A DNA stretch of 64,000 nucleotides from an uncultured Clostridia bacterium (GCA_944387895.1 CALXGQ010000008.1:21921-85920), one strand, 5' to 3'; numbered from the stretch's first letter, positions 25,193 to 44,448 are shown. The notes: a model not told the origin generated them from the sequence alone. Numbers and translations: made by a program.

Positions 25193-25215
25193 GCCCCCTT
25201 CTTTTCAAAATACTA
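25187..25215 (+). promoter_or_regulatory. sigmaG/sigmaF-like forespore promoter
   Basis: GAATA-17 nt-AATACTA, compared with the sigmaG consensus GHATA-N17/18-CATACTA. Confidence 0.45.
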
Positions 25216-25231
25216 ACAAAGAGGTGTTGGT

Positions 25232-25483: not shown

Positions 25484-25511
25484 AGATCCGGTTCTGCCGG
25501 ATCTTTATTAT

Positions 25512-26606
25512 TTATACGTTGAATCGGAAGAGGACGACGTCGCCGTCCTTCACCTCATATTCCTTTCCCTCACTTCGTACCAGCCCCTTTTCCCGGGCGG
25601 CCAGCATCGATCCACAGGCGATCAGATCATCATAGGCCACCACCTCGGCCCGGATAAAGCCGCGCTCAAAATCGCTGTGGATCTTCCCTGCGGCCTGAGG
25701 TGCTTTGGTTCCCTTCCGGATTGTCCAGGCCTTGGTTTCCATTTCGCCGCTTGTGATATAGCTGATCAGACCCAAAAGCCGATAACAGGCGGAAATCATC
25801 CGATCCAAACCGCTGTGTTCAAATCCAAGCTCAGCCAGAAACAGTTCTTTTTCTTCTTCGCTCAGTTCGCTGATTTCCTCCTCCAGCCGTGCGCAGATCA
25901 CCACCACCTCGGCATTTTCCCGGGCGGCGCGTTCCTGAACGGCGGCAATATAGGGATTGCTCAGTTTCCCGTTTTTAAAGTCCTCCTCGCATACATTGGC
26001 GGCATAAATGACAGGCTTATTGGTCAAAAGCGAAACGCTCTTCATCAGCTCCAGCTCGTCCTCGGTAAAAGAAACGGTGCTGACAAACCGCTCCTCCTCC
26101 AAAGCCGTTTTGATTTTATCAAACAGCTCCACCTCGGCAAGATGCTTTTTATCGCCCTTGGCCAGCTTCAGCGCACGGTCGCGCATCTTTTCCACCGCCT
26201 CAAGGTCGGAAAAAATCAGTTCAAGATTGATGGTATCCATATCACGGATGGGATCAACGGAGCCATCCACATGGACGATATTTTCATCCTCAAAGCAGCG
26301 GACAACATGGACAATGGCGTCGACCTCACGGATATTGCCGAGGAATTTATTGCCCAGTCCCTCACCTTTTGAAGCGCCCTTGACCAGCCCTGCAATATCC
26401 ACAAATTCGATCACCGCCGGGACTACGCGCTTGGAATGGTTCATTTCAGCCAAAACGTCCAGCCTTTTATCCGGAACGCATACCATCCCTACGTTGGGAT
26501 CGATGGTGCAGAAGGGATAGTTGGCGGACTGCGCCTTCGCATTTGTAATTGCGTTGAACAACGTGCTTTTCCCAACATTGGGAAGACCGACGATACCTAA
26601 TTTCAT
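25512..26606 (-). CDS. ychF: redox-regulated ATPase YchF (Obg family)
   Basis: [30 protein letters not shown] and a TGS domain. Confidence 0.97.
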
Positions 26607-26620
26607 AAAATATAACCTCT

Positions 26621-28252
26621 CTATTTACTCTTTACTTCCTGTTCAAGCCGCTCAAAGAAGCGATCCCGCAGAGCAAGGAATTTTTCCGGCGCGTCCGCAA
26701 TACGCGAAAGGGTGACGGGAAATTCCTTTTTCAGCATGGAAACGATCCGTTCGTGACGGATAAAGCGCTCCAGCGCTTCCATGACGCGGATGTCCTGAAT
26801 GGCAAACAACAGCTGCTTCAGCCGGATAGAAGGGATCGGACCGGCCTGCGTTGGATAAACCAGAAAATCCGAGCCGGAAGGACGGCTGTTGGCTCCGTCC
26901 GCATTCCAAAAGGGATCAAAAGCGTCGCCGGACGGAGCAATATAATGATTGAACCACGGATGAAACATCCCGACAAGGTCATATCTGCGGCAAAGCAGAC
27001 CAAAGGCACGCACCCGAACGGAAGGAGAAGCGATCAGAAAATTCACCATATCCTTCGACGTATCGATATCCAGGCAGACCTCACGGTTGAGTATGTCCGT
27101 ATCCAAAAAACGCTCCATCTCGTGCAGAGGCACGATCGGCGTAGAAGCGAGGCCAAGATCATAAAAGCTTCGCCCGACCATAACGTCGGATATCCGATGC
27201 CTGGTTATCACATCTCTGATAATTGCGCGGCAGCGGGCATAGCGCTCTTCCTGCTCTACGGCAGGCGCGCAACTGATCTGAAAGCTGACCCGATCTTCCA
27301 TGCCGAGCTCTTTCAGGTGCTGCCTCAGCTTGCGGATAAATGATCGGATAAAGGTGGAGAATTTGGGGCTGAATACATCCTCTTCCGGCTCAAAAAGATC
27401 TTCTTCCCGCTGCTCGCGGATCACCTTCAGCTTCGGGCATTCCAGCGTTTCAAGAGAGGGAAAGATCGGCGGAAAGGTAAAGCTTTCGATTCCGTTTTTC
27501 CGCGCCAAAACCAGCCAGCTATCCAGCAGATCATAATGAAACGTGTACTTTCCCTTTTTCTCATTGATCTGCACAAGCTGAACCATTTCGCTTCCAACAA
27601 GGCGGCCGTTATAGGTAACGGGAAATATGGGCGTAATGATATTATTGATCCCATGCTCCGCCGCCAGAGAAAAATATTTCTCCAGATGGTCCCAATGGAG
27701 ATTGCAGAACATCGGATAGCGGTAATGCGCCGCGATGCTGCAGGGATCAATATACTGACAGTTGCGGAACCTCTGCTTTGGGAGCTGAATTGGCAGAACG
27801 TGCAGAAGAAAAGAGGAAACCAGCTCTTCCCCGCCGGTTTCAAAATGAATCCGCACTTCATAATCGCCCGGAAAATCCGCAATGACGCCGATCCACAGAA
27901 CCGTGAGGTTGCGGTTGACCGTCAGCGTACAGGGGCTTTCAAGAGGGATCAGCGCATCCGGCAGAAGGCACGGCTCATTTGCCAGATACTCCGGATAGGG
28001 ATCATCCTCCCGATGGGGCCAGCTCACCGGCGTTTGCGTCACCTGATACAGGAATACCCGTCCCAGATTCTCCTTGCGCACCGTTACGGCTTCGCCGCTT
28101 TCGCAATCGCTGTAAAGCACGATCTGATAAGCAAACTCCTCGCCGCACAGAGCGCTGGCTCTTTCATATGCCGGCTTGAACTCCCTGGTGCCGGGCCTTA
28201 TTTTTTCCAGACAGGATTGTTGAATGATATGTATCATCGGATTTATGCCCAA
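26621..28252 (-). CDS. DUF4091/GH123-like glycoside hydrolase homolog, apparently lacking the catalytic residues
   Basis: LLPDAL, LWIGV, HGINNIITP, SGSDFLVYP and SIRLKQL...QDIR match the DUF4091 pattern; the usual ISDEP reads ISCAP. Confidence 0.65.
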   Translation of the reverse strand: MGINPMIHIIQQSCLEKIRPGTREFKPAYERASALCGEEFAYQIVLYSDCESGEAVTVRKENLGRVFLYQVTQTPVSWPHREDDPYPEYLANEPCLLPDALIPLESPCTLTVNRNLTVLWIGVIADFPGDYEVRIHFETGGEELVSSFLLHVLPIQLPKQRFRNCQYIDPCSIAAHYRYPMFCNLHWDHLEKYFSLAAEHGINNIITPIFPVTYNGRLVGSEMVQLVQINEKKGKYTFHYDLLDSWLVLARKNGIESFTFPPIFPSLETLECPKLKVIREQREEDLFEPEEDVFSPKFSTFIRSFIRKLRQHLKELGMEDRVSFQISCAPAVEQEERYARCRAIIRDVITRHRISDVMVGRSFYDLGLASTPIVPLHEMERFLDTDILNREVCLDIDTSKDMVNFLIASPSVRVRAFGLLCRRYDLVGMFHPWFNHYIAPSGDAFDPFWNADGANSRPSGSDFLVYPTQAGPIPSIRLKQLLFAIQDIRVMEALERFIRHERIVSMLKKEFPVTLSRIADAPEKFLALRDRFFERLEQEVKSK

Positions 28253-29319
28253 AGCCCCTGATCCACAAGAGAGCGGATCGTTGCATTATGGCCGTCCAGC
28301 GTGGTGTTGAAATAAAATTTACCGTTTTTATCCGTCACAAAATAGTAGTAATCGGTATCGGTGGGGTTCAGCACGGCGTTGAGCGCTTCAGCACCGGGAC
28401 AATTCGTCGGCCCCACGGGCAGGCCGGAGCAGGTATAGGTATCATATGCCGCTCTCATCTCCTCGGAATATCCGTCAAGGGATTCCAGCGTTTCGGCATA
28501 GCTCGTCGTTGGATCGGATTGCAGACGCGGCAGGGATTGGGAATTCAGCCGGTTCCAAAAGACGGACGCCACACCGGTCATGGACTCCTCGCTGGGAGCT
28601 TCCGCCTGCACCACGGCTCCGAACGCGATGAATTCATTCAGCGAAAGACCCATTTCCTCCGCCTTTTTGATCTGATCCTCCGTGATGTATTCCGTAAAGG
28701 CCTTCAGCATCTCATCAACGATCTGGTGCGGCGTGACCGTATCCGCGCGAAATTCATAGGTGGCCGGGAAAAGATAGCCTTCCAGCTTATAGCCGATCAG
28801 GGATTGATCCCGCGCCTCCAGTTCATCGATGAAATCATAATCATAATCGTAGCTGTCCGCCGCCTTCAAAAATTCCTCGGCGGTGCACAGACCGGACTTG
28901 GCAACGATTTCCGCGATCTCGCGCACGGTCTTCCCCTCCGGGATCACGACCTTGACATAGTCCAGCATAACATCCGGTTCCATCAGCGCTTCGCAAAGCT
29001 CCCGATAGGACATATTGGCGTTTAAATAATAAATTCCGTTGTACCACACAAAATCCGGATAATTTTCCTTAATGTAGTTTAAGAACCGGGCCGATGAACA
29101 AATGATGCCGTTTTCCGCCAGCTCCGCAGCGACTTCATTTTCAAAATCGGTCTTTTCAATGGTGAGCGTATACGGAATGTCCTCCTGATTCCTGCCGGTC
29201 TTATCATAATAATACGGCAAATATCCCTTGATTTTCGGCACGGCAAAAATCAGGCCGACGATCACAAAAAGCAGAATAAAAGCCAAAAGACTCAGCAGCA
29301 GAATTTTTTTCTTCGTCAT
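28243..29319 (-). CDS. mltG: endolytic transglycosylase MltG (YceG-like)
   Basis: N-terminal TM helix, IPEG, LEGYLFPATY, VQAEA, LQSDPT, GLPVGP and YYYFV. Confidence 0.92.
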   Translation of the reverse strand: MTKKKILLLSLLAFILLFVIVGLIFAVPKIKGYLPYYYDKTGRNQEDIPYTLTIEKTDFENEVAAELAENGIICSSARFLNYIKENYPDFVWYNGIYYLNANMSYRELCEALMEPDVMLDYVKVVIPEGKTVREIAEIVAKSGLCTAEEFLKAADSYDYDYDFIDELEARDQSLIGYKLEGYLFPATYEFRADTVTPHQIVDEMLKAFTEYITEDQIKKAEEMGLSLNEFIAFGAVVQAEAPSEESMTGVASVFWNRLNSQSLPRLQSDPTTSYAETLESLDGYSEEMRAAYDTYTCSGLPVGPTNCPGAEALNAVLNPTDTDYYYFVTDKNGKFYFNTTLDGHNATIRSLVDQGLWA

Positions 29320-29353
29320 GGAGAGCCCTCCTAAAATATAAGCATATGAAAGA

Positions 29354-29382
29354 ATTATACCAAAAAAGCGTATAAAATACAA
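29354..29382 (-). promoter_or_regulatory. sigmaA promoter of mltG
   Basis: TTGTAT-17 nt-TATAAT with an extended TG. Confidence 0.65.
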
Positions 29383-29392
29383 TAGTTTTTAC

Positions 29393-29429
29393 AAAAGAAA
29401 AGAGCCGTTTCGAGGAAAAACGGCTCTTT
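29393..29429 (-). terminator. terminator after purA
   Basis: AAAGAGCCGTTT/AAACGGCTCTTT stem plus a U tract. Confidence 0.8.
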
Positions 29430-29434
29430 GGTCA

Positions 29435-30709
29435 TTAAAACATTTCGATATACTGTTCGCGCTCCGGCCCGACAGAAATATATTTGATCGGGCAGCCGAC
29501 AGCCTTTTCCACAAATGCGATGTAGTCCAGCGCGGCCTGGGGCAGCTCTTCTTTGGTTTTACAACCGGAAATATCGCATTTCCAGCCTTTAAAATACTCA
29601 TAGATCGGCTTTGCCTCGGTCAGCTCAAGGCCGGTGGGGAAATAATCGATCCGCTGTCCGTTCACTTCATAGGCGACGCAAACGGGGATTTGATCCAGAT
29701 AGGAAAGCACGTCCATCTTCGTCAGGGCAAGGCAGGTGGCGCTCTGCATCAGAGTCCCGTAGCGGGAGGCCACCACATCGAAGCCGCCGACTCTTCTGGG
29801 GCGGCCGGTAGCGGCGCCATATTCGCCGCCCGCTTCCCGCAGCTCATCGCCTTTCGGCCCGAAAAGCTCACAGGTGAAGGGGCCTTCTCCCACGCAGCTG
29901 GAATACGCCTTGATGATCCCGATGCTTTCATCCAGCTTCTGATTGGGAATGCCGGCACCGATCGGCGCATAGGCCGCGATGGTAGAGGAGGAAGAGGTAA
30001 ACGGATAAATGCCGAAATCGATATCGCGAAGGGCGCCCAGCTGCGCTTCAAACATTACGCTTTTCCCCGCCTTGATCGCGTCGTTGAGGAAAATCGTGGT
30101 ATCGCAGACATACTCCCTGAATGCCATCGCGTAGGTTTCCAGCCAGTTCAGCATTTCCTCTACCTGAAGAGGCTCATGGCCGTATCCGTTATGCACCGTA
30201 AGGTTCTTCCACTCCAAAATCCCTTCCAGCTTCTCGCGCAGCAGCTCCGGATGGCGCAGATCGCCCATACGCAGGGTTTTCTTCATGTATTTATCCGCAT
30301 AGACCGGAGCGATCCCGCGCCGGGTGGAACCGAATTTCTTATCTGCCAGCCGATCCTCTTCCAGGCAGTCCAGAAGCTTGTGATACGGCATACAGATGGT
30401 AGCGCGGTCGCTGATCTTGAGATGCCGAGGCGTGATCTGGATGCCGCCCTCGCGCAGCCTTTCCACCTCATGAAAAAGATGCTCCGTATCGATCACCATG
30501 CCCGGCCCCATCACATTGACCGTTTCATCGCGCAAAATCCCGGAGGGAAGCAAATTCAAAATGAATTTCCCCCGCTCATTGACGACGGTATGCCCGGCAT
30601 TGTTGCCGCCCTGATAGCGGCAGACGATATCATATCGCTCCGAAAGCAAGTCCACCATGCGGCCCTTGCCTTCATCTCCCCAGTTAATTCCTACAACTGC
30701 TGTCAACAT
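29435..30709 (-). CDS. purA: adenylosuccinate synthetase
   Basis: WGDEGKG, GGNNAGHT and GEYGAATGRPRR. Confidence 0.97.
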   Translation of the reverse strand: MLTAVVGINWGDEGKGRMVDLLSERYDIVCRYQGGNNAGHTVVNERGKFILNLLPSGILRDETVNVMGPGMVIDTEHLFHEVERLREGGIQITPRHLKISDRATICMPYHKLLDCLEEDRLADKKFGSTRRGIAPVYADKYMKKTLRMGDLRHPELLREKLEGILEWKNLTVHNGYGHEPLQVEEMLNWLETYAMAFREYVCDTTIFLNDAIKAGKSVMFEAQLGALRDIDFGIYPFTSSSSTIAAYAPIGAGIPNQKLDESIGIIKAYSSCVGEGPFTCELFGPKGDELREAGGEYGAATGRPRRVGGFDVVASRYGTLMQSATCLALTKMDVLSYLDQIPVCVAYEVNGQRIDYFPTGLELTEAKPIYEYFKGWKCDISGCKTKEELPQAALDYIAFVEKAVGCPIKYISVGPEREQYIEMF

Positions 30710-30724
30710 TTTCCAAGCTCTCCC

Positions 30725-32161
30725 TTATACTTTAATCTCTATGTCAACGCCCAGATAGGCTTTGTTTTTTTCCAAAACAGGGCGTACATACCCGGCAAGA
30801 AACTCTTCCGTCTGTTCCGGAGCGAATCCGATAAAGTTCCGGACATTCAGGATGGAATCAAGCTCTTCCTGCGTCAGCCCGAAGCGGGGATCCTCCAAAA
30901 TCCGATCCAAAAGATCGTTGGGACATCCCTCCAGTTTGATCTTCTTTGTGACCGCAACGGAATGCTCGCGGATCGCCTCATGGATCGCCTGCCGGTCCCC
31001 TCCTTTTTTGACGCAGTACATCATGATGTTTTCCGTCGCCATAAAGGGCAGCTCTTCCTTTAAATGGGCGTCCATCACCTTCGGATAAACCGAACCTCCG
31101 GAGATCACATTGATGTAAAGCGACAAAATGCCGTCGATCGCCAGAAAGGCCTCCGGAACGCTAATCCGCTTATTGGCGGAATCGTCCAGCGTCCGCTCCA
31201 GCCATTGGGTCGCCGCAGTCATGGCCGGATTCAGCGCGTCGATCATCACATAACGCGCCAGAGAAGCGATCCGCTCGGAACGCATGGGGTTACGTTTATA
31301 GGCCATGGCGGAGGAACCGATCTGCTTTGCCTCAAAGGGCTCGTCAAATTCCTTCATATGGGAAAGAAGACGGATATCTCCGGCGAATTTGCAGGCGCTT
31401 TGCGCGATCCCCGAAAGAACAGACAAAACAAAGTAATCCTCTTTACGGGTATAGGTCTGGCCGGAAACGGGCATCACCTTTTTGAAGCCCATTTTTTCTG
31501 CGATTTTTTTCTCCAGCGCGGTCACTTTCTGATAGTCCCCGTCAAACAGCGACATAAAGCTGGCGCAGGTTCCCGTCGTTCCCTTGCACCCCAGCAGACG
31601 AAGAGAGTCCATCGCCTGATCCACGCGCTCCAGATCCAGCAGAAGATCCTGGATCCAGAGGGTCGCGCGTTTTCCCACGGTCGTGGGCTGCGCGGCCTGA
31701 AAATGCGTATATGCCAGCGTAGGCACGTCCTTATACTTCCCGGCGAACTCCGAAGCGGCGTAAATGGCGTTGATAAGCAGGCGCTTTACCTCTTCCAGTG
31801 CTTCCCGCATCAGAATGATATCGGTATTATCACCCACGTAGCAGGACGTTGCCCCCAGATGAATGATCGGCTTAGCGGAAGGGCAGGCGTCGCCGTAGGT
31901 ATGGACATGCGCCATTACGTCGTGGCGCAGCTCCGCTTCATATTCTTTCGCACGGGCGTAGTCGATATCATATATATGTTCCTTCATTTCAGCGATCTGC
32001 TCGTCGGTGATATCCAGGCCAAGCTCCTTTTCGCTTTCCGCAAGGGCAATCCAAAGCTTGCGCCAGGTTGAGAACTTATGATCCGCCGAAAAGATCGCCT
32101 GCATTTTTTTGCCGGCATAGCGGGTGCAAAGGGGATTTTCGTAGAATTGACTCATCGCCAT
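30725..32161 (-). CDS. purB: adenylosuccinate lyase
   Basis: RHDVMAH, IHLGATS, THFQAAQP and GSSAMAYKRNP. Confidence 0.97.
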   Translation of the reverse strand: MAMSQFYENPLCTRYAGKKMQAIFSADHKFSTWRKLWIALAESEKELGLDITDEQIAEMKEHIYDIDYARAKEYEAELRHDVMAHVHTYGDACPSAKPIIHLGATSCYVGDNTDIILMREALEEVKRLLINAIYAASEFAGKYKDVPTLAYTHFQAAQPTTVGKRATLWIQDLLLDLERVDQAMDSLRLLGCKGTTGTCASFMSLFDGDYQKVTALEKKIAEKMGFKKVMPVSGQTYTRKEDYFVLSVLSGIAQSACKFAGDIRLLSHMKEFDEPFEAKQIGSSAMAYKRNPMRSERIASLARYVMIDALNPAMTAATQWLERTLDDSANKRISVPEAFLAIDGILSLYINVISGGSVYPKVMDAHLKEELPFMATENIMMYCVKKGGDRQAIHEAIREHSVAVTKKIKLEGCPNDLLDRILEDPRFGLTQEELDSILNVRNFIGFAPEQTEEFLAGYVRPVLEKNKAYLGVDIEIKV

Positions 32162-32167
32162 TCCTCC

Positions 32168-33784
<1,617 letters not shown>

Positions 33785-33791
33785 TCAAGCG

Positions 33792-34379
33792 TCAATCGTC
33801 ATACATTTTAATAATGTTGCGGGCGATCTCTCCGCGTTTTACGCAATGATCCATCGCCGTTTTTTCGATATATCGGTGCGCGTCCTGCTCCGACATCTTC
33901 AAATGCTCGATCAGCAGGCATTTCGCCCTGTTTACCATACGAAGCTCTTTCATTTTTTCTTCCAGAGTCCAGTTTCTCTCTTCCAGAGAACGCATTCTTG
34001 CCTGGGAAGCGACAAGTAGCTTGACCGCCTGAAAAACACTCTGGCGGCTCACCGGCTTTGCCAGAACAAACACGCCGTAGTGCTCCATTTCATAGGAAAT
34101 CTGTTCATAAACGTCATTTTTCACAAATAAAAGCACGCCGGCTCCGCTGTGCTCGACGACGGAAAGCGCAAGCTGCGTTCCAAATTCATCTTTCAGCGGG
34201 GTGTCTATGATCACAATGTCCGGCGGAGCTTCCGACAAGACCCTGCGCGCCTCGCCTGCGCTGGTCGCGGTCTGAAAGGGATGAAACTGGCCGGATGGCA
34301 GCAGCTCGGTAAAATACCGGCTCGCATTTTCCGAAACAGTAACCAGCAAAACGCTGGTACTGATTGAATCATGAAACAT
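33792..34379 (-). CDS. ANTAR-domain antitermination regulator with an atypical receiver domain (NitR/AmiR-like)
   Basis: REC-like N-terminus (PDIVIIDTPL, LAKP), a coiled coil, and an ANTAR domain VNRAKCLLIEHLKMSEQDAHRYIEKTAMD. Confidence 0.9.
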   Translation of the reverse strand: MFHDSISTSVLLVTVSENASRYFTELLPSGQFHPFQTATSAGEARRVLSEAPPDIVIIDTPLKDEFGTQLALSVVEHSGAGVLLFVKNDVYEQISYEMEHYGVFVLAKPVSRQSVFQAVKLLVASQARMRSLEERNWTLEEKMKELRMVNRAKCLLIEHLKMSEQDAHRYIEKTAMDHCVKRGEIARNIIKMYDD

Positions 34380-34400
34380 CTGGCCCTCTCCTTTCGGGAA

Positions 34401-35597
34401 TCAGGAATGAAGAAAATCCACAGGCAAAACGTCATGTAAAAACGCGCTGTTCTCGGCCAGGGCCCTTGCTTCGCCCAGCGACAGAGGAAGCGTTTCCAGC
34501 GCATCTGTCACCGCGGGAGGCGCCGTAAAGAGATTCAGGTTCACCGGCTCCGGCGGAGTCATGTTTTTTTCCACGCCGTCCAGCCCGGCATAAATCAGCA
34601 GGGCGTATGCAAGATAGGGATTGGCGGTCGGATCCGGAGAGCGCAGCTCGATCCTGCAGGGGTTTTTATGAGAAGCGGGAATACGAATCAGCTGGGAACG
34701 ATTCTCCGGCGACCAGGATATATACTTGGGCGCCTTCATCTCGCCGAATCTGCGGTAGGACTGCTCGGTGGGATTGAAAAATACGGTGATATCCCGGATA
34801 TGATGCAGGATCCCGGCCAGAAACGCCGGCGTGTGATCCACCGAATCCTCGGAATGAACGGAAATATTGATGTGCATCCCGTTTCCGCTGCTCGCCGGGA
34901 GCGGCTTGGGATCAAAGTCCGCATAAAGGCCGTTGCGCCTGGCGATCGTTTTAACGACCGCCTTGAAGGTAACCGCATTATCGGCGGCCGAAAGAGGATC
35001 GCTGTATTTGAAATCGATCTCCTGCTGCCCCGGCCCTTCTTCATGATGAGAGCTCTCCGGATGGATTCCCATATCCAGCAGCGTAAAGCAGATCTCGCGC
35101 CGGACATTCTCGCCGCAGTCTTCCGGAGCAATATCCATATATCCGGCCGTATCAAACGGTTTGAAGGTCCGGTTTCCTTCTTCGTCTGTTTTAAAAAGGT
35201 AAAATTCAAATTCCGTTCCGATGTTGCAGGTCAGCCCTTTAGCCGCCGCCCGGGCCACCGCGTCTTTCAGGATCCGGCGTCCATCTTTCTCAAAGGGCGT
35301 GCCGTCGGGATATAAAATGTCGCAAAACATCCGCACAACTCTGCCGTTGGTCGGTCTCCAGGGCAAAATACAAAGCGTCGAGGGATCCGGGCGCAGAAAC
35401 AGATCGGAATGAAGCTCATCGCCAAATCCCAAAACGGCGGAGGCGTCGAAAGAAATACCGTCTGAAAATGCGCGTTCAAGCTCCGCCGGCATGATGGCGA
35501 TATTCTTCTGATTGCCATAGATATCGCAAAAAGCAAGACGGATAAATTTGACGTTTTCCTCTTCAACAAAGGTCATGACATCCTCATAGGTATACAT
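34401..35597 (-). CDS. glnA: glutamine synthetase type I-like protein (degenerate and C-terminally short)
   Basis: VKFIRLAFCD, GTEFEFYL, SHHEEGPGQQEIDF, GMHINIS and IELRSPD. AAGGAGG RBS before ATG 35597. The Glu-flap reads GEMKAP. Confidence 0.85.
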   Translation of the reverse strand: MYTYEDVMTFVEEENVKFIRLAFCDIYGNQKNIAIMPAELERAFSDGISFDASAVLGFGDELHSDLFLRPDPSTLCILPWRPTNGRVVRMFCDILYPDGTPFEKDGRRILKDAVARAAAKGLTCNIGTEFEFYLFKTDEEGNRTFKPFDTAGYMDIAPEDCGENVRREICFTLLDMGIHPESSHHEEGPGQQEIDFKYSDPLSAADNAVTFKAVVKTIARRNGLYADFDPKPLPASSGNGMHINISVHSEDSVDHTPAFLAGILHHIRDITVFFNPTEQSYRRFGEMKAPKYISWSPENRSQLIRIPASHKNPCRIELRSPDPTANPYLAYALLIYAGLDGVEKNMTPPEPVNLNLFTAPPAVTDALETLPLSLGEARALAENSAFLHDVLPVDFLHS

Positions 35598-35620
35598 GCT
35601 TGTCCTCCTTATTCCGGCAT

Positions 35621-35696
35621 AAAATAAAAATAAGATATCCACCATCTGCCCTGTGAAACCGCGAGCACTTTCGCAACCGGTGAACATCTTTGCCCA
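35621..35696 (-). promoter_or_regulatory. ANTAR-type hairpin overlapping an intrinsic terminator in the glnA-like leader
   Basis: TGGGC-AAAGAT-GTTCA hairpin (loop A1/G4), mutually exclusive with a 12-bp AAGATGTTCACC/GGTGGATATCTT stem followed by ATTTTTATTTT. Confidence 0.7.
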
Positions 35697-35717
35697 TACT
35701 CTTTCAATTATATTTTA

Positions 35718-35745
35718 ATTATATCTGAAATGCGCGGATTGTCAA
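35718..35745 (-). promoter_or_regulatory. sigmaA promoter of the glnA-like-ANTAR-pyrG-purB-purA unit
   Basis: TTGACA-16 nt-TATAAT on the minus strand. Confidence 0.8.
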
Positions 35746-35827
35746 GTGAAAGGCCATTGAATTTTTCTTTTGATTTTCCCGTTTTTTTGGGCAAAAACAC
35801 CAAATGAAAATTTTTTTCGATTTTGCA

Positions 35828-35856
35828 TTGACAAATCCAAAAAGCGAGAGTATAAT
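35828..35856 (+). promoter_or_regulatory. sigmaA promoter of the GSIII gene
   Basis: Perfect TTGACA-17 nt-TATAAT. Confidence 0.88.
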
Positions 35857-35865
35857 GCAGATATT

Positions 35866-35991
35866 GAAACGGCAATGATGTCGGGAAATCATTTTTCCTG
35901 TATCTGCCGTTTCTTTCATTTTATGCATCGAAAGCGGCAATGGGGTCGTGGAGCATGGGATTGCTTCACCCTCATTGCCGCTTCATTTTTT
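35866..35991 (+). promoter_or_regulatory. tandem ANTAR hairpin/terminator attenuator in the GSIII leader
   Basis: CGGC-AATGAT-GTCG (35870-35883) and CGGC-AATGGG-GTCG (35935-35948), each overlapping the 5' arm of a terminator stem that ends in a U-rich tract. Confidence 0.78.
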
Positions 35992-36011
35992 GAAAGAGAG
36001 GTTATCGTAAA

Positions 36012-38105
36012 ATGAGCAAAGTATCTGAAATTTTTGGTGAAAACGTCTTTGGCGATTCCGTGATGAAGGAGCGGCTGCCCAAGGAAACATACAGGCAGCT
36101 TCAACGCACCATCAAAAACGGCCGCCGGCTGGACAGCGCCGTTGCGGCGGTAGTAGCGAACGCGATGAAGGACTGGGCCATTGAAAAAGGCGCAACTCAT
36201 TTTACCCACTGGTTCCAGCCGTTGACCGGCGTGACCGCGGAGAAACACGACAGCTTCATCTCCCCCTGCGGCGACGGAAAAATCATCATGGAATTTTCCG
36301 GCAAAGAGCTGATCCAGGGCGAGCCGGACGCTTCCTCCTTCCCCTCCGGCGGACTGCGCGCCACCTTTGAAGCCCGCGGATATACTGCATGGGATCCTTC
36401 CTCCTATGCCTTTATCAAGGATAACGTATTGTGCATCCCCACGGCCTTCTGTTCCTATAGCGGCGAGGCGCTAGACCGCAAGACCCCCCTTCTCCGCTCC
36501 ATGGAAGCGATCAATAAGCAGGCTCTGCGGGTTCTGAAGCTTTTCGGTAACGACGACGTTACCGCCGTCCGCACGACGGTCGGCCCGGAGCAGGAATATT
36601 TTCTGATTGATAAGGACGTTTACGACCAGCGCAAGGATCTGATTTATACCGGCCGTACCTTGTTCGGCGCAAAACCGCCGAAGGGTCAGGAACTGGAGGA
36701 TCATTATTTTGGCTCCATCAAACCCCGGGTTCAGGCCTTTATGAAGGATCTCAACGAAGAGCTGTGGAAGCTGGGCATTTTAGCCAAAACCGAGCACAAC
36801 GAGGTTGCCCCCGCCCAGCATGAGCTGGCTCCCGTTTTTTCCACAACGAATATTGCGGCGGATCACAACCAGCTGACGATGGAGATGATGCAGAAGGTCG
36901 CCGGAAAGCATCATATGGTCTGCCTGCTTCATGAAAAGCCCTTTGCCGGCGTCAACGGCAGCGGAAAGCACAACAACTGGTCCATCTCCACCGATACCGG
37001 GATGAACCTTCTGGAGCCGGGCGAAACGCCTTACGAGAACGCGCAGTTTCTTCTGTTCCTCTGCGCCGTTATCAAAGGCGTGGACGAATATCAGGATCTG
37101 CTGAGAATCTCCGTTGCTTCCGCGGGGAACGATCATCGTCTGGGCGCAAACGAAGCGCCTCCCGCCGTTGTTTCCATTTATCTCGGCTCCGAGCTGACGG
37201 AGATTTTGGAATCCATTGAAAACGGCACCGCCTACGACGCAAAAGAAAAAGATCTGCTGAAGATCGGCGTTCATATGATGCCCCGCTTCCCCAAAGATAC
37301 CACCGACCGCAACCGCACCTCGCCCTTTGCGTTTACCGGCAATAAATTCGAGTTCCGGATGCTTGGCTCTGCCCAGGCCGTTTCCTGCGCCAACGTCGTG
37401 CTGAACACCGTTGTGGCGGAAGAGCTCAAGCAGTTTGCCGACGCGCTGGACGGCGCGCCTGATTTCGATACCGCGCTTCATGATCTGATCAAAAAGACCA
37501 TAGCCGATCATAAGCGTATCATCTTCAACGGCAACGGCTACGACGAAGCCTGGCTGGTAGAAGCGAAAAAGCGCGGACTTTTGAATCTCACCTCCACGCC
37601 GGATTGCCTGCCCTATGTTCTCCATGAGAAAAACGTCAAGCTCTATACCGACCATAAAATCTATACAAAGACGGAAATTCAGGCGCGCTATGAGGTTTCC
37701 TGCGAGAACTACTGCAAAGTCATCCGTATCGAAGCGCTCACCATGCTGGATATGGCTAAAAAGGACATTCTGCCCACCGTCAGCAAGTTCACCGGCGAGC
37801 TGACCGAAGCCGCTCTGGCCAAGGCTTCCCTTTCCGACTCTTTGGATTGCAGCTACGAAAAAGAGCTGGTGGAGAAGCTCAGCCGCCTGAACGCAACGGC
37901 CTATCAGAAGGTCAAGGCGCTGGAGGAAGCCGTTTTGGGAGCAGACGATATTGTCGAAAGCAGCGCTCTTTGCCGCTACTATAAAGACTCCGTATTTGCG
38001 GCGATGAGCGAGCTGCGCATCGTTGTGGACGAGATGGAAACCCTCACCGCAGCGTCCAGCTGGCCTTATCCCTCCTATGGCAAGCTGCTCTTCAGCATCA
38101 AATAA
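36012..38105 (+). CDS. glnN: glutamine synthetase type III
   Basis: 697 aa; [57 protein letters not shown] and [10 protein letters not shown]. Confidence 0.96.
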
Positions 38106-38131
38106 ACACAAAAAAAGACGGAAAGCTCTTG

Positions 38132-38217
38132 TTTTCCCGGATTTCCTTGCCGCTTTTCGCGCGCCCCTATGGACAATCCGCGGGGCGCTGCGAAAAGCGG
38201 TACGGTTTTCCGGAGAA
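38132..38217. repeat. long GC-rich imperfect inverted repeat between GSIII and asnB
   Basis: CCGCTTTTCGC-GCGCCCC pairs with GGGGCGC-T-GCGAAAAGCGG; additional outer pairing TTCCCGGA/TCCGGAGAA; no U tract. Confidence 0.7.
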
Positions 38218-38256
38218 GGGTGATCCGCGAGGTCTTTGAAAGAGAGGAATCGGACC

Positions 38257-39837
38257 ATGTGCTCCATTATGGGTTACATCGGGAATGTAATATCATCAGA
38301 AAAATTCAGAGAGGGCTTTGATCAGACAAAGTCCCGCGGGCCGGACATGACAGAGGTGGTTGCTATTGAAAACGGCCGCCTCGGCTTTCACCGGCTGGCG
38401 ATCATGGGTTTGACCCCCGAGGGAATGCAGCCCTTTACGCTTGGGGAAAACAAGCTTGTCTGCAACGGGGAAATCTATGGATTCCGCTCCATCAAGCAGG
38501 AGTTGGCTGACAAGGGATATTCCTTTACAAGCGATTCCGACTGTGAAATCCTGCTTCCCCTCTATCAGGAATACGGGCTGGATATGTTTCGGATGCTGGA
38601 CGCGGAATTTGCCATGATCCTCTACGACGCCGAGAAAAAAGCCCTGATCGCCGCAAGAGATCCCATCGGCATCCGGCCGTTGTATTACGGCCGGGACGCA
38701 GAAGGCTCCATTCTTTTCGCATCGGAGGCGAAAAACCTGGTGGGGCTGACGGACAAAATCCTTCCATTCCCGCCGGGGCATTATTATGCCGATGGCGCCT
38801 TTCATTGCTATCGCGACATGACAAAAGTGGAAAAAATCTGCACCGACGATCTGGAAACCGTATGCCGCAAGATCCGCATAAAACTGACCCGGGGAATTGA
38901 AAAACAGCTGGACGCCGACGCACCCCTCGGCTTTTTGCTGAGCGGCGGCCTGGACTCCTCTCTGGTCTGCGCCGTTGCCGCAAAGGCGCTCGACCGGCCG
39001 ATCGAAACCTTCTCCATCGGCATGGACGCCGACGCCATTGATCTAAAATACGCCCGGGAAGTGGCCGACTACATCCACAGCAATCATCATGAAATCATCA
39101 TAACCCGCAACGACGTTTTAAAGGCGCTCCCGGAGGTGGTTGCCCTGCTGGGCACCTTCGATATCACCACGATCCGCGCCAGCATCGGGATGTATCTGGT
39201 CTGCAAGGCCGTGCATGAAACCAGCGACATCCGCGTCCTTCTGACCGGCGAAATCTCCGACGAGCTTTTCGGTTATAAATACACCGACTTTGCGCCTTCG
39301 GCCGAAGCCTTTCAGGAGGAATCCGCAAAACGGATCCGGGAGCTTCATATGTATGATGTTCTGCGTGCGGATCGCTGTATTTCCGTCAATTCTCTGGAGG
39401 CGCGGGTTCCCTTTGGGGATCTGGACTTTGTGGAATACGTTATGAGCGTCGATCCGGAGAAAAAGCTCAATCATTACGGGATCGGCAAATATCTTCTGCG
39501 GCACGCCTTTGAAGGCGACTACCTCCCCCCTTCCATCCTGATGCGCGAAAAGGCCGCATTCAGCGACGCTGTCGGCCATTCGATGGTAGACGACCTCAAG
39601 GAATATGCCGAAAAACTGTATACGGACGAAGAATTTCAGGCGCGCTGCGGCCGGTATTCCTACTGCCCGCCCTTTACCAAAGAATCTCTTCTCTACCGCG
39701 AGCTTTTTGAGCAGTATTATCCCGGTCAGGCGGAAATGATCGCCGGATTCTGGATGCCAAACAAAGAATGGGCGGGCTGCGACGTCAACGACCCTTCCGC
39801 CCGCGTCCTTTCCAACTATGGAAACAGCGGAAAATAA
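38257..39837 (+). CDS. asnB: asparagine synthetase B (glutamine-hydrolysing)
   Basis: Ntn start MCSIMG, RGPD, FHRLAI, CNGEIY, LLSGGLDSS and EARVPF. Confidence 0.96.
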   Translation: MCSIMGYIGNVISSEKFREGFDQTKSRGPDMTEVVAIENGRLGFHRLAIMGLTPEGMQPFTLGENKLVCNGEIYGFRSIKQELADKGYSFTSDSDCEILLPLYQEYGLDMFRMLDAEFAMILYDAEKKALIAARDPIGIRPLYYGRDAEGSILFASEAKNLVGLTDKILPFPPGHYYADGAFHCYRDMTKVEKICTDDLETVCRKIRIKLTRGIEKQLDADAPLGFLLSGGLDSSLVCAVAAKALDRPIETFSIGMDADAIDLKYAREVADYIHSNHHEIIITRNDVLKALPEVVALLGTFDITTIRASIGMYLVCKAVHETSDIRVLLTGEISDELFGYKYTDFAPSAEAFQEESAKRIRELHMYDVLRADRCISVNSLEARVPFGDLDFVEYVMSVDPEKKLNHYGIGKYLLRHAFEGDYLPPSILMREKAAFSDAVGHSMVDDLKEYAEKLYTDEEFQARCGRYSYCPPFTKESLLYRELFEQYYPGQAEMIAGFWMPNKEWAGCDVNDPSARVLSNYGNSGK

Positions 39838-39849
39838 ATCAAAACGTGC

Positions 39850-40018
39850 TTGCTTCATCCCCTTCCCCTATATGGTTTGTGATGAAAACACATCAGAACA
39901 ACGCCACGGCTTAGGGTTGCTCATCGTGAAACAAATCGCTGCCGCTCACAAGGGTACGGTAGAAATAGGACATAGTGAATATGGTGGGCTTGAGGTCAAA
40001 ATATCCTTGCCTTTATAG
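39850..40018 (+). pseudogene. orphan 3' fragment of a sensor histidine kinase (HATPase_c C-terminus)
   Basis: YMVCDENTSEQRHGLGLLIVKQIAAAHKGTVEIGHSEYGGLEVKISLPL carries the G2 box and the last strands. The upstream part is absent and the segment is lower in GC than its flanks. Confidence 0.75.
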
Positions 40019-40098
40019 CCCGATCCAAAATTCAATCCCAAATAAACGCCGAAAGGGACGCTTCCTTATGTGAAGCATCCCTTAGACCCGTTTTTTTA

Positions 40099-40127
40099 TT
40101 GACAAAATGCGGAAAGATCGATAAAAT
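40099..40127 (+). promoter_or_regulatory. sigmaA promoter of nadE
   Basis: TTGACA-17 nt-TAAAAT. Confidence 0.75.
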
Positions 40128-40160
40128 TGATAATATACACCAACCATTCGGGAGGAGATT

Positions 40161-42071
40161 ATGAAAGACGGTTTTATTAAGGTTGCCGCCGGAAGCGTTG
40201 CGGTTTCTGTTGCGGATCCGCAGAAAAACGCCGATGAGATCATCGGCCGGATCCAGGAAGCCGACCGGGCCGGCGTTCATCTGCTGGTTCTGCCGGAGCT
40301 TTGCATAACCGGCTACACCTGCGGCGATTTATTCTACAGCGAATTGCTCTTAAACGGCGCCCTTACGGCGCTGGAAAAAATCCGGAAGGCTACGGAAGAA
40401 TTATATCCCGTCGTTGTGGTAGGGCTTCCGCTTCGCTATCAGAGCAAGCTCTTTAACTGCGCCGCGGTTCTTTCTCAGGGCAACATCCTCGGATTCGTGC
40501 CGAAAACCCATCTGCCAAACTATGCGGAATTTTATGAAATGCGGCAGTTTTCTTCCGCGGAAGTACTCGACGGAACGGAAACAATCTTCATAAACGACGA
40601 GGAGATCCCCTTCGGCGCCAATCTGCTGTTCCGGCATCAGGCGCTGGAAAGCTATTGCTTCGGCGTTGAGATCTGCGAAGATCTCTGGGCCCCGGAAACG
40701 CCCTCTCAGTATCTGGCGGCGGCCGGCGCTCTGCTGATTGCCAATCCTTCCGCTTCCAATGAAGTCATCAGCAAAGACGATTATCGCCGTCTTCTGGTTT
40801 CAGCCACCTCCGCCCGGTTGATTGCCGGCTATATTTACAGCAATGCCGGGCCGGAAGAATCTACGCAGGACATGGTTTTTTCGCGCCATCATCTGATCGC
40901 GGAAAACGGCGCGATCCTGGCAGAAAACGCCCCCTTTGAAGAAAATCAGCTTCTGATCACGGAAATAGACTTGCAGCGCCTGACGGCAGAGCGGCATAAA
41001 AATACCAGTTTCTACAGCCGGTCGGATCCATTCTCCGTGCTTCTCTTTGACCAGGAGCTGCGGGAAACGACGCTGACCCGGCACTATCCCAAAAACCCCT
41101 TTGTGCCGGCGGATCCCTCGTCCCTGAGCAAAAGAGCGGAGTCCATCCTTCAAATCCAGGCTCAGGGCTTGAAAAAACGGCTGGAGCACACCAAAGCCCA
41201 ATGCGCCGTCGTCGGCATCTCCGGCGGGCTGGACAGCACTCTGGCGCTTCTTGTCGCCGCGCGGGCAATGAAGCTGCTCGGGCGGCCAAACAGCGATATC
41301 CTGGCCGTAACCATGCCCTGCTTCGGAACCTCGGCGCGCACCAAAACCAACGCTGTTTCGCTGTGCAGAGAGCTTGGCGCCGAGCTGATGGAAATCGATA
41401 TTACCGCAGCGGTCAGCCGACACTTCGCCGATATCGGGCAGGAGGAAACGGTCTACGACGTGACCTACGAAAATTCTCAGGCGCGGGAGCGGACGCAGGT
41501 TCTGATGGATCTGGCCAACCGGCGCGGCGGGCTCCTTGTTGGCACCGGGGATCTATCGGAGCTTGCCCTTGGCTGGGCTACCTACAACGGCGATCATATG
41601 TCCATGTATGGCGTGAACGCCTCTGTTCCGAAAACGCTGGTGCGCTATATTGTGCGCTATGAGGCGGAGCAAGCCTCCCCCGTACTCCGCGCCACCCTGC
41701 TGGATATCCTGGATACGCCGGTTTCACCGGAGCTTCTCCCGGTCGATCAGAACGGAGAGCTTTCGCAAAAAACAGAAGATCTGGTCGGTCCCTATGAGCT
41801 GCATGATTTTTACCTCTATCATTTTCTCCGGTTCGGCTATACGCCGAAGAAGCTGCTGCGGCTGGCGCGCTATGTCTTTCAGGACAGCTATGACGATGAA
41901 GTGCTGATCCATTGGCTGAAAACATTTCTACGCCGCTTTTTCACCCAGCAGTTTAAGCGCTCCTGCCTGCCGGACGGCCCGAAGGTAGGCTCGGTTTCCC
42001 TTTCCCCCCGCGGGGATTGGCGGATGCCGTCCGACGCTTCCTTTGCGCTCTGGATCAACGATCTGCAATAA
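40161..42071 (+). CDS. nadE: glutamine-dependent NAD+ synthetase
   Basis: Nitrilase domain ([22 protein letters not shown]) plus synthetase domain ([17 protein letters not shown]). Confidence 0.96.
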
Positions 42072-42112
42072 AAAAAGAAGCTGTTTCAGAATTTTCTGAA
42101 ACAGCTTTTTTT
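42070..42112. terminator. bidirectional terminator between nadE and the YesL-family gene
   Basis: AAGCTGTTTCAGAA/TTCTGAAACAGCTT inverted repeat flanked by A and T runs. Confidence 0.85.
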
Positions 42113-42887
42113 AGTCTTCATCGGGATCCAGCTCATCGCGGGAATCGGGTTCCTCAAATCCCTCGTATTTTTCATCCTCCAGCCGCTCTCCGGTTTTCGG
42201 ATCGAACCCATCGATCATATATTTTTTGATCAGCGGATTGATGATAAAGTTGATCAGCAGCCCGCAGAAGGAGAAATAAATCGTCACCAAAATAAAGAAA
42301 AGATAAATGATATTGACATACTGCACCAAAAGCAGCGTCACCACAACCAGAATCGCCGTGAGCAGCAGGTTTCTGAAAAATCCCGCCCAGCAGAAAATAA
42401 ACGCGTTTTTCAGCAGCTGCCGGAAGGTAAGGCGGAAGGTGATCATCATATTATAAACATAGTAGCGCATGAACACCCAGACCGTCAGGGAAAGGAAGAT
42501 CGCCGCCAGCGAAAGGGTGCTCAGAAACTGGTTCGGCACATTCCGGATCGCATTCAGATCCAGCCACAGAAAGAGAAAAATGCCGAGATCCAGCAAAGAA
42601 AACAAAAATGCCTGCAAAAAGTTCTTTTTGAAGGTTTCGATAAAATCACCCCAGATGAACGCGTGCTCTTCTCTGGCGTAATTTCTCATGATTTTAGTGA
42701 ATCCGGCCGTTGCGGGCCCGATTGTGAAAATCGGGATGCAAAACAAAACATACAGCATATTCGCCGAGATCAACTGCCAGAATTTCCGGAAAAAAATCCG
42801 GAAAAACAGCAAAAATCTTGGCGTCGTTTCATTTTTTGAAACCCCTTTTCCTTCTTTCTGATACTGATTGAAAAGCCCCATGCTCAC
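42111..42887 (-). CDS. YesL/DUF624 family membrane protein
   Basis: FCIPIFTIGPATAG, FKKNFLQA and LLKNAFI; several TM helices. Confidence 0.8.
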   Translation of the reverse strand: MSMGLFNQYQKEGKGVSKNETTPRFLLFFRIFFRKFWQLISANMLYVLFCIPIFTIGPATAGFTKIMRNYAREEHAFIWGDFIETFKKNFLQAFLFSLLDLGIFLFLWLDLNAIRNVPNQFLSTLSLAAIFLSLTVWVFMRYYVYNMMITFRLTFRQLLKNAFIFCWAGFFRNLLLTAILVVVTLLLVQYVNIIYLFFILVTIYFSFCGLLINFIINPLIKKYMIDGFDPKTGERLEDEKYEGFEEPDSRDELDPDED

Positions 42888-43786: not shown

Positions 43787-43844
43787 CGATGTTTCCTCCT
43801 TTCAGTAAAATTTCAGGCGGCAGCCTGGCCGCAAAGCCGCCCTG

Positions 43845-44432
43845 TCAAAACAAGCTTAAAATCACCGGCACCATCTTCCATTCCCACAAGGCTCCGCATA
43901 AAAGAAAAGGACTGACTGCAAGCAGACAGTAGCTATGGCGAAGAAATTCCCGGTAAGCGGCGCCGTGCTTTCCCCTGCCTTTCAACAGCTCGAAAAGAAC
44001 CACCGATAGCCGGGCCGAGGAATAGCAGAGAAAATAACCAAGCACCGTATAGAAAAAATTCTGGACGAAAAAAGCCAGAGTCCCCAGAATCAAGCCCCGC
44101 CACCCGGATAAAATGGCGGCAAGAGCAATCAGAAGGCCGATGGAAAAGCCCTTATAGAGCGGATAAAGCGGAACGAGCGGAATCCCCACTACCGTTAGCC
44201 CCAGCAAAAAGATCAGAAGAAAGAAGATAAATTGCTGTAAAAACGCCGCGAAAAAACCGCAGCTGTTTTCGGGGCTGAAAAGAAGCTGAGCCTGCGTCGA
44301 AAAATCATTCCGCAGCAAAACGGCGGTTCCTGCCCCGATAAATACCCCGATCAGATACAGCAAACCATACAGCCGAATGACCGGCAGCTCCTGGATGTAA
44401 GTCTTTTTAATTTTACGCAGCAATCGATTCAT
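43845..44432 (-). CDS. spoIIM: stage II sporulation protein M
   Basis: About 5 TM helices, GLTVVGIP...YKGFSIG, C-terminal WE..VP; sigmaE promoter; upstream of xerD. Confidence 0.78.
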   Translation of the reverse strand: MNRLLRKIKKTYIQELPVIRLYGLLYLIGVFIGAGTAVLLRNDFSTQAQLLFSPENSCGFFAAFLQQFIFFLLIFLLGLTVVGIPLVPLYPLYKGFSIGLLIALAAILSGWRGLILGTLAFFVQNFFYTVLGYFLCYSSARLSVVLFELLKGRGKHGAAYREFLRHSYCLLAVSPFLLCGALWEWKMVPVILSLF

Positions 44433-44448
44433 ACCATCACCTCATCAC

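Follow-up and report, generated by a model that had tools for sequence, protein, structure and literature searches.

A short-form glutamine synthetase paralog encoded ahead of a pseudo-receiver ANTAR protein: a candidate nitrogen sensor for transcription antitermination in Clostridia

Introduction

Among the closest described relatives of the system studied here is the glnA-nitR pair of Clostridium saccharobutylicum, in which a glutamine synthetase (GS) gene is followed by a gene for NitR, an ANTAR protein with a receiver (REC) domain. NitR acts on nitrogen assimilation by antitermination and induces GS and glutamate synthase (GOGAT) upon nitrogen limitation, by a mechanism that the cited text calls "not fully understood", leaving unresolved how NitR senses nitrogen (PMC6316151). 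The same cluster of ANTAR, type-I GS, GOGAT and type III GS (GSIII) genes is described for Clostridium thermocellum (PMC4676874, PMC9888227). Here we analyze a related pair of genes in a 64,000-nucleotide stretch of DNA, hereafter the window, from an uncultured Clostridia bacterium (GCA_944387895.1 CALXGQ010000008.1:21921-85920), where a GlnA-like protein is encoded directly ahead of an ANTAR protein. Compared by gene order, the window pair differs from glnA-nitR in two respects: the ANTAR protein is partnered by a short-form paralog that has Lys in the flap, an altered D50 loop and lost thong helices, and the regulated GS is GSIII. The GS of the glnA-nitR pair is a working enzyme.

Other described systems each share part of this arrangement. 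In AmiC-AmiR of Pseudomonas aeruginosa, a pseudo-receiver ANTAR protein is sequestered, independently of phosphorylation, by a ligand-binding partner encoded by the adjacent gene (PMC12591593). The partner there has a periplasmic-binding-protein fold and its binding was shown, whereas the partner in the window has a GS fold and is presumed to bind. The NasS-NasT system of Paracoccus is likewise a pseudo-receiver ANTAR system sequestered by a partner. In Bacillus and other Gram-positives, it is a GS of the GSI-alpha type that serves as nitrogen sensor: with glutamine bound, it uses its E flap, D50 loop and thong helices to bind the regulators GlnR or TnrA (PMC9249791). Those GS proteins are catalytic and their clients are MerR-type DNA-binding proteins with C-terminal tails; the window protein has all three of these parts rebuilt, and its client would be an ANTAR protein that binds RNA. 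Finally, EutV, of the EutV/EutW system, acts on hexaloops with A1 and G4 that overlap the 5′ strand of a terminator, but it is switched by a kinase and uses two hairpins a short linker apart (PMC3369931), while the window system has no kinase and one hairpin per terminator, with the loop AAnGGY.

The glnA-nitR pair and antitermination by NitR (PMC6316151), sequestered ANTAR proteins of the AmiC-AmiR type and GS sensing on behalf of GlnR/TnrA are therefore already known. Apparently unpublished, supplements being outside our search, are a large monophyletic clade of flap-Lys short-form GS tied to ANTAR proteins, the pseudo-receiver status of the ANTAR proteins linked to it, and a one-hairpin-per-terminator RNA element with its regulon. 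The same literature search for GS-like/ANTAR sensor pairs returned mentions of NitR only, and Table S2 of PMC3369931 may list some of the leaders; a 2025 review of RNA-binding antiterminators contains neither "glutamine synthetase" nor "glnA".

Results

A short-form GS clade with a changed catalytic flap

The GlnA-like protein is a recognizable GS, with 86.4 bits for Gln-synt_N and 297.2 bits for Gln-synt_C in Pfam, and its AlphaFold2 model (pLDDT 93.3, pTM 0.93) superposes on solved GSI-alpha structures with TM scores of 0.94-0.96. The closest solved sequence is that of Methanosarcina mazei GS (356 bits, ~44% identity). The protein scores below the cut-offs of both the NCBIfam GlnA equivalog TIGR00653 (351.9 bits vs 429.15) and the putrescine-ligase model (211.5 vs 650). 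Alignment to solved GSI-alpha agrees with the original prediction, made from this DNA alone, that the metal and glutamate ligands are kept: E129/E131, H184-H185-E186, E193, H242, E317/R319, R283, R300, R305 and Y153, which we take from the general GS literature to be ligands of metal, ATP and glutamate, are all retained.

The same alignment bears out the two sequence changes that had been singled out. The flap reads SYRRF-GEMKAP opposite NSYKRLVPGYEAP in solved GSI-alpha, that is, with a deletion of one residue and Lys288 at the position of the flap Glu, and SGNGMH stands opposite NGSGMH. The D50 loop, whose changes were absent from the prediction, retains D51 but has Asp60 in place of the Arg of GFVR and Ala54 in place of the ammonium-site Ser. 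The loss of ~45 aa at the C-terminus had been overstated: the protein ends ~28-30 aa before canonical GSI-alpha, inside the region of the thong helices, by which the two rings of canonical GSI-alpha are joined, and an overlooked internal deletion of 13 aa after "INISV" makes up most of the rest.

The location of these changes can be compared with what is described for regulatory GS. In feedback-inhibited GS, the E-flap residue Glu304 is in contact with the amide of glutamine and is in turn fixed by Arg62 from the D50 loop; the C-tail of GlnR docks on a surface to which the E flap, the D50 loop and thong helices alpha14/alpha15 all contribute (Travis et al. 2022, PMC9249791). The same paper gives the flap Glu as the catalytic residue, and GS without the D50-loop Arg is described as not inhibited by glutamine (Müller et al. 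2024, PMC10799026). The elements rebuilt in the GlnA-like protein, namely the K288 flap, D60/A54 of the D50 loop and the shortened thong C-terminus, are exactly the three parts by which GSI-alpha holds GlnR/TnrA. An acidic residue is found at position 60 or 61 in 69 of 80 sequences with a K/R flap, and a flap-to-loop contact of reversed charge might form through it.

A second potential ligand site lies elsewhere in the protein. The closest solved sequences are those of archaeal GSI-alpha activated by 2-oxoglutarate (Methanothermococcus, Methanosarcina), and the residues of the inter-subunit 2-oxoglutarate pocket have been named for the Methanothermococcus enzyme (PMC10799026). Those archaeal proteins are active enzymes with a flap Glu. 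Their pocket residues correspond in the GlnA-like protein to F18, R20, A34, R81, R166, R167 and S183, by an alignment that is transitive and leans in part on B. subtilis numbering. These predicted pocket residues are invariant or nearly so across the short form, position 34 being occupied by either S or A. The archaeal-type pocket is thus apparently intact, and 2-oxoglutarate is as good a candidate signal as glutamine.

The unusual features of the GlnA-like protein are shared by a large family. We built a maximum-likelihood tree of 94 ANTAR-linked GS rows (the aberrant L067 and L077 were left out), rooted on three canonical sequences. The short form, marked by the 13-aa deletion and the short C-terminus, is a single clade of 79 of the 94 rows with an SH-aLRT of 100, and its flap residue is K in 77 rows and R in 2. 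Over all 94 rows the flap position is occupied by K (78), E (8), S (3), R (2), Q (2) and G (1), the short-form clade nesting among full-length ANTAR-linked GS, in which the flap is likewise one residue shorter but carries E, Q, S, G or K. In an alignment of 55 short-form rows, K288 is present in 54 and Ala54 in 50. F18, R20, E131, Y153, R166, R167, H185, E193, H242, R283 and R300 are invariant in these rows, and the set E129, E131, E186, E193, H242, E317, R283, R300, R305 and R319 is invariant or nearly so. More widely, a threshold of E ≤ 1e-40 yields 7997 relatives; lengths among the best 120 range from 393 to 424 aa, and those with a name are annotated as "glutamine synthetase family protein". 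With K288 and the ligand residues kept across the short form and a confident model, the GlnA-like protein is a folded protein under purifying selection whose flap has changed for good. The flap and deletion features, which recur in dozens of species, are on this pattern of conservation attributable neither to chance nor to decay.

Several full-length ANTAR-linked GS have Ser, Gln, Lys or Gly in the flap: L071, L072, L092 (Sedimentibacter), L059 (Romboutsia), L098, L106 and L018. These proteins resemble transitional steps on the way from canonical GS to the short form.

An ANTAR family with a pseudo-receiver

The protein encoded behind the GlnA-like gene has a clear ANTAR domain (PF03861; 58.9 bits vs a Pfam cut-off of 27.3), while its receiver stays below the cut-off of Response_reg (PF00072; 25.2 bits vs 30.2). 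In the model (pLDDT 93.9), a receiver fold with five strands is followed by a single long helix and then by a bundle of three helices. Its structural matches are RNA-bound EutV (6ww6_B), which is the best with a TM score of 0.79, Rv1626, and AmiR (1qo0) with a TM score of 0.63. Within the ANTAR domain, A152, K153, A167, H168, E172, K173, A175 and M176 are invariant; R151 is fully conserved among 18 rows and present in at least 90% of 55 rows.

The original prediction described a receiver that had lost its acidic pocket and its switch Thr/Ser. Both losses stand, with V15 S16 at the acidic pair and K87 at the switch position, but the account omitted that the phospho-acceptor D59 and the conserved K108 are retained. 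The wider family is further removed from a canonical receiver. Of 103 relatives, 89 have Asn at the phospho-acceptor position, 7 have Asp (the window protein, its two nearest relatives and four others) and 7 have another residue. The acidic pair has an acidic residue at the first position in 3 relatives and at the second in none, the switch position is Lys/Arg in 94, and the conserved Lys is kept in 89. As had been predicted, no intact kinase is nearby, the region between 22991 and 44432 of the window holding no kinase gene, and in a search for the HisKA domain only, all 7 HisKA kinases of the host genome lie within ~2 kb of a canonical receiver gene. Because Asn mostly replaces Asp, the acidic pair is absent, the switch is K/R and 7/7 HisKA kinases are paired elsewhere, control of the ANTAR family by phosphorylation is very unlikely. 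The family alignment supports a kinase-independent pseudo-receiver throughout, in keeping with the kinase-free ANTAR protein that had been proposed. The idea that the GS-like protein acyl-phosphorylates the receiver Asp was dropped, as this residue is Asn in most relatives.

The pair is inherited as a unit and accompanied by GSIII

The GS-like/ANTAR system is real and widespread across gut Clostridia. A scan with the ANTAR alignment, using one genome per species, gave at least 600 stretches, 599 of them confirmed matches, and gene neighborhoods were read in the best 80 of these loci. In 75 of these 80, the ANTAR gene directly follows a GSI(-like) gene on the same strand; in the remaining 5, the ANTAR gene is at a contig end (3), the GS is cut (1) or the N-terminal domain of GS is fused to the ANTAR protein (1, L104). 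The median gap between the two genes is ~32 nt (n = 54, with guessed starts). Among the relatives of the window genome, 20 of 24 non-self loci have a GSI(-like) open reading frame (ORF) directly upstream on the same strand. Out of 60 such relatives, the 20 genomes that encode a GSI(-like) protein of at least 46% identity are exactly those with an ANTAR gene directly behind it. The pair is present in only 4 of 28 other genomes of the window's own genus, which, together with this exact co-occurrence, indicates that it is gained and lost as a unit.

GSIII is the regular companion of the short form. In at least 45 of the 80 loci, the flanking sequence retrieved holds a GSIII gene on the opposite strand, a lower bound because many contigs end early. 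In 61 genomes searched, GSIII was present in all 14 short-form genomes, with two copies in 12 of them. The sole relative without GSIII (G059) has a canonical GS with the flap VPGYEAP beside its ANTAR protein, and in two genomes where the ANTAR-linked GS has a flap Glu, a second, canonical GSI is also present.

Terminator-overlapping hairpins precede the putative target genes

In related loci, a hexaloop hairpin is found directly after promoters (for example AGGCAAAGGCGUCU, GAGCAAAGGCGUUC or CGGCAAAGGYGUCG), its 3′ half being the 5′ strand of an intrinsic terminator. The loop consensus is AAnGGY, whose A1 and G4 occupy the two loop positions that have been shown to be important for EutV and NasR (PMC3369931, PMC12591593). 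For a covariation analysis, instances were chosen by loop, -10-like box and T-tract only, against circularity, which gave 124 hairpins, 112 of them distinct. The flanking 7-bp helix is paired in 74.0% of cells, compared with 60.5 +/- 1.2 in shuffled sets (0/500 reach it), and helix covariation is 0.445, compared with 0.229 when shuffled (0/500) and at most 0.19 with slid partners. The pair types change accordingly: one helix position is GC in 39 instances, AU in 30 and CG in 14, and the next is AU in 43 and GC in 42. Since the element begins ~8-14 nt past the -10 box, there is no space upstream for a second hairpin (P1).

Hairpins of this kind stand in front of both GSIII and the pair's own operon in the window (Table 1), as expected of the antitermination that had been predicted. 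The GSIII leader is highly structured (z = -6.1). At the same place in the GlnA-like leader, the related locus L007 has a similar hairpin, GAGC-AAAGAU-GUUC; the terminator stem and U-tract of this leader are conserved in L006 and L007, and the inner hairpin varies. A strict pattern scan of the host genome gave 10 matches, of which the intergenic ones are the 3 leader sites and a doubtful one on contig 30. An Rfam scan over positions 25000-45000 (E ≤ 1) turned up neither a riboswitch nor a known leader; its sole match, to RefA9, is due to chance. From their position and covariation, the AAnGGY hairpins overlapping terminators are likely RNA targets of the ANTAR protein.

An additional motif, AUYGAAA, precedes the hexaloop hairpin in all three leaders of the window (35863-35950 and 35696-35712): AUUGAAAC, AUCGAAAGC and AUUGAAAGAGUAU.

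The element defines a nitrogen-assimilation regulon

In 80 loci plus the window, 123 hairpin-plus-terminator units lead to 97 distinct downstream ORFs, 16 units having no called ORF. The most frequent downstream genes are those for GSIII (33, and 1 fragment), the GATase_2 subunit of a split GOGAT (29) and GSI-like proteins (20, and 1 fragment); where the split GOGAT is found, the GS-like and ANTAR genes close its operon. The others encode the large GltB (2), glutamate dehydrogenase (GDH; 2), class-IV aminotransferase (2), AmtB-PII (1), PyrG (1), GuaA (1), PurA (1) and proteins without a Pfam family (2), with pyrG and purA carrying their own element in other loci. In the host genome, the units judged genuine by eye precede GSIII (twice), the GlnA-like operon, an amtB-PII fusion, gltB and dapF, the fusion containing the only PII domain of this genome. 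The genes that bear the element form a coherent regulon of nitrogen assimilation and amide transfer.

The unit in front of dapF, which encodes diaminopimelate epimerase, is unexpected in a nitrogen regulon: it is a well-formed GAGC-AAUGGC-GUUC with a terminator (G000:C20:15171, minus strand; L111). A further hairpin, GGAC-AAAGGC-GUUC, follows a -10-like TATAAT and precedes the gene for the ATP-synthase a-subunit (G000:C31:11387, minus strand; L110); its terminator is doubtful, and the hairpin could be either one more target or a match by chance. In the host genome, the leader of the other GSIII gene (G000:C29 ~31400-31560; L113:2900-3060, minus strand) has a strong promoter and a terminator-like hairpin and contains no AAnGGY hairpin, and this gene seems to be controlled differently from the GSIII of the window.

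Genomic context of the pair

The coordinates, reading frames and 21-nt gap of the two genes given by the original prediction proved right (Table 1), as did the divergent and intact GSIII, which has a normal GSIII_N score of 276 bits in Pfam. The GlnA-like start codon is preceded at 7 nt by the ribosome-binding site AAGGAGGA, and the leader of its operon extends ~115 nt after the promoter. On the other side of the pair, pyrG, purB and purA are probably co-transcribed with it.

Table 1 Features of the GlnA-like/ANTAR locus, in positions of the window
Feature	Coordinates	Strand	Description
GlnA-like CDS (coding sequence)	34401..35597	-	398 aa, start 35597 -> 34401; short-form GSI-alpha paralog clade
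Spacer GlnA-like / ANTAR	34400..34380	-	21 nt
ANTAR CDS (NitR-like)	33792..34379	-	195 aa, read 34379 -> 33792; pseudo-receiver + coiled coil + ANTAR
Sigma-70-type promoter, GlnA-like operon	35718..35745	-	TTGACA-16-TATAAT, 12/12 matches
Hexaloop hairpin, GlnA-like leader	35682..35695	-	GGGC-AAAGAU-GUUC; 3′ part within 5′ strand of leader terminator
Terminator-like hairpin, GlnA-like leader	35691..35632 (unit 35619..35691)	-	U-tract 35631..35619; fold-only z = -1.3, weak
Sigma-70-type promoter, GSIII operon	35828..35856	+	TTGACA-17-TATAAT, 12/12 matches
GSIII leader unit 1	35866..35924	+	hairpin CGGC-AAUGAU-GUCG 35870..35883 in terminator 1 35866..35913, -25.2 kcal/mol, U-rich tail
GSIII leader unit 2	35932..35992	+	hairpin CGGC-AAUGGG-GUCG 35935..35948 in terminator 2 35932..35983, -36.5 kcal/mol, then AUUUUUUGA
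GSIII (type III glutamine synthetase)	36012..38105	+	697 aa; divergent; presumed catalytic GS behind tandem terminators
asnB, glutamine-hydrolysing asparagine synthase	38236..39837	+	downstream of GSIII
nadE, glutamine-dependent NAD+ synthase	40161..42071	+	downstream of GSIII, after asnB
pyrG	32168..33775	-	start 16 nt past ANTAR stop
purB	30725..32161	-	after pyrG
purA	29435..30709	-	after purB

The host genome (1.69 Mb in 32 contigs, rated 100% complete) encodes one GSI-like protein, which is that of the window, two GSIII and one ANTAR protein. In two metatranscriptome runs, we found contigs with pieces of the GlnA-like and ANTAR genes, one of which spans the junction (34218-34434); these contigs are uninformative on transcript ends, strand, level and termination, and could stem from DNA carry-over. 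Nearly all neighbors between 29435 and 42071 use the amide nitrogen of glutamine (pyrG, asnB, nadE) or aspartate as nitrogen donor in AMP synthesis (purA, purB), next to GSIII, and the region looks like a nitrogen-spending island. It is flanked by homologs of SpoIIE and SpoIIM and a XerD-type recombinase (22991-25192 and 42884-44432), and the host is probably a spore-forming member of the Clostridia despite its small genome.

Discussion

We propose that the window contains the core of a NitR-type nitrogen regulon that would act by transcription antitermination. The ANTAR protein, probably as a dimer, would bind the AAnGGY hairpins at the 5′ foot of the terminators and, by occupying the 5′ strand of each terminator, would allow RNA polymerase to read into GSIII, GOGAT, amtB and the pair's own operon. 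Read-through at GSIII may extend to asnB and nadE, and read-through into the operon of the pair to pyrG, purB and purA. The GS-like protein would no longer produce glutamine at a useful rate, catalysis being left to GSIII. It may bind ATP, glutamate or glutamine, and perhaps 2-oxoglutarate, with a shift of the flap and the D50 loop, and would control the ANTAR protein by binding and letting go of it, with binding most likely under nitrogen plenty. This sign of control, sequestration at nitrogen excess, is a guess that leans on the phenotype reported for a glnA deletion in C. thermocellum.

As the ANTAR protein appears to have no phosphorylation input and is encoded behind a paralog with a rebuilt face, this paralog would be the most economical input. 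A division of labor, with GSIII as the producer of glutamine and the short form as the sensor, fits the presence of GSIII in every short-form genome checked, the canonical GS of the relative without GSIII, and the second GSI of the two genomes whose ANTAR-linked GS has a flap Glu. On the conservation and arrangement of these genes, we give an even chance to the GS-like paralog sensing nitrogen status for the ANTAR protein. A broader version, which we hold more tentatively and rate somewhat below even, is that this clade of gut and rumen Clostridia "glutamine synthetases" consists of pseudoenzymes that act as receptors for 2-oxoglutarate and/or glutamine and gate a kinase-less ANTAR protein, making the latter a master nitrogen regulator through a code of one hairpin per terminator before GSIII, GOGAT, amtB, GDH and nucleotide amidotransferase genes.

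Several observations weigh against a sensor of this type. Canonical GS genes also adjoin related ANTAR genes (L024-L026), so adjacency alone may reflect co-regulation and not binding. A mirror-tree analysis of 21 loci gave correlations of 0.68 between GS-like and ANTAR proteins, 0.72 between GS-like and GSIII and 0.75 between ANTAR and GSIII, with a partial correlation of 0.31 for GS-like/ANTAR given GSIII; the analysis thus does not single out the GS-like and ANTAR proteins by extra co-evolution. Among long fused ANTAR relatives (343-2000 aa), 0 of 1627 candidates scored, which is weak evidence. On the RNA side, the hairpin of the GlnA-like leader is weak (4-5 bp) and poorly kept in the closest relative, L006, and the elements have one hexaloop hairpin per terminator, in units that are single or in tandem (often ~65 nt apart) and each with its own terminator, and not the two-hairpin substrate of EutV. 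Finally, the well-kept active site, with its nearly or fully invariant metal, ATP and glutamate ligands in an intact fold, may leave room for an enzyme role, as a GS with other kinetics or as a ligase of another amine.

The alternative favored by the adjacency of canonical GS genes, the mirror-tree analysis and the kept ligands and fold is that the GlnA-like protein is still an enzyme, either an altered GS or a gamma-glutamyl ligase for some other amine, and stands beside the ANTAR protein through operon co-regulation only, like glnA-nitR. The ANTAR protein would then sense nitrogen through a small ligand in its pseudo-receiver or through the PII domain of AmtB-PII; the genome has no other PII domain, and the gene for this one is preceded by an element. 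We regard this alternative as unlikely, though it deserves to be taken seriously. Of the 94 ANTAR-linked rows, 80 have Lys/Arg and a further 6 have S, Q or G where the catalytic flap Glu would stand. Ala takes the ammonium-site position of Ser in 50 of 55 rows, and the scores of the protein are below the cut-offs of both enzyme models. Moreover, the changes sit on the parts that bind regulators in the GS described in PMC9249791, and the short form is never the sole GS in the 14 genomes checked.

The two other alternatives would each remove the signaling function from the GS-like protein, and the family as a whole speaks against both. The ANTAR protein could be a true response regulator, with D59 phosphorylated by a distant kinase or by acetyl phosphate; the window receiver and those of its two closest relatives do have D59 and K108, which also counts against the sensor proposed here. 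We consider this improbable to a high degree, given that the Mg-binding acidic pair is V15 S16, the switch is K87, the receiver is below its Pfam cut-off, the HisKA kinases of the genome all have their own adjacent regulator, and 89 of 103 relatives, which share the gene partner and the RNA elements, have Asn in place of the phospho-acceptor Asp. Still harder to credit is that the GlnA-like gene is a functionless, decaying remnant of glnA. A length below that of canonical GS, the missing flap Glu and a score under the equivalog cut-off would fit such a remnant, but the reading frame is open behind a strong ribosome-binding site, the protein model is confident, and contigs from RNA libraries cover parts of the gene, the last point being weak evidence. 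Above all, decay is contradicted by the pattern of conservation, that is, by thousands of relatives of which the best are of uniform length and by a deep short-form clade that keeps K or R at the flap and many invariant active-site residues.

If the sensor proposed here is confirmed, nitrogen control in a very large group of anaerobes (at least 599 species-level ANTAR matches) would run through a GS-derived sensor and an RNA-binding pseudo-response-regulator, and not through GlnR/TnrA, NtrBC or PII. Many genes annotated as "glutamine synthetase" or "glutamine synthetase family protein" would then not encode the GS of the cell, which bears on metabolic models of gut and rumen Firmicutes and on the engineering of cellulolytic clostridia. 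The RNA element provides a simple sequence readout of the nitrogen regulon, and the signal input of NitR, lacking so far, becomes directly testable with two small soluble proteins.

A last observation concerns the fusion found among the 80 loci. In an uncultured Oscillospiraceae (L104:7632-8558, plus strand), the N-terminal beta-grasp domain of GS (~100 aa) is fused in frame to the ANTAR protein, with no GS catalytic domain. This fusion may be what a deletion left behind, an artefact of the assembly or a genuine minimal form of the system.

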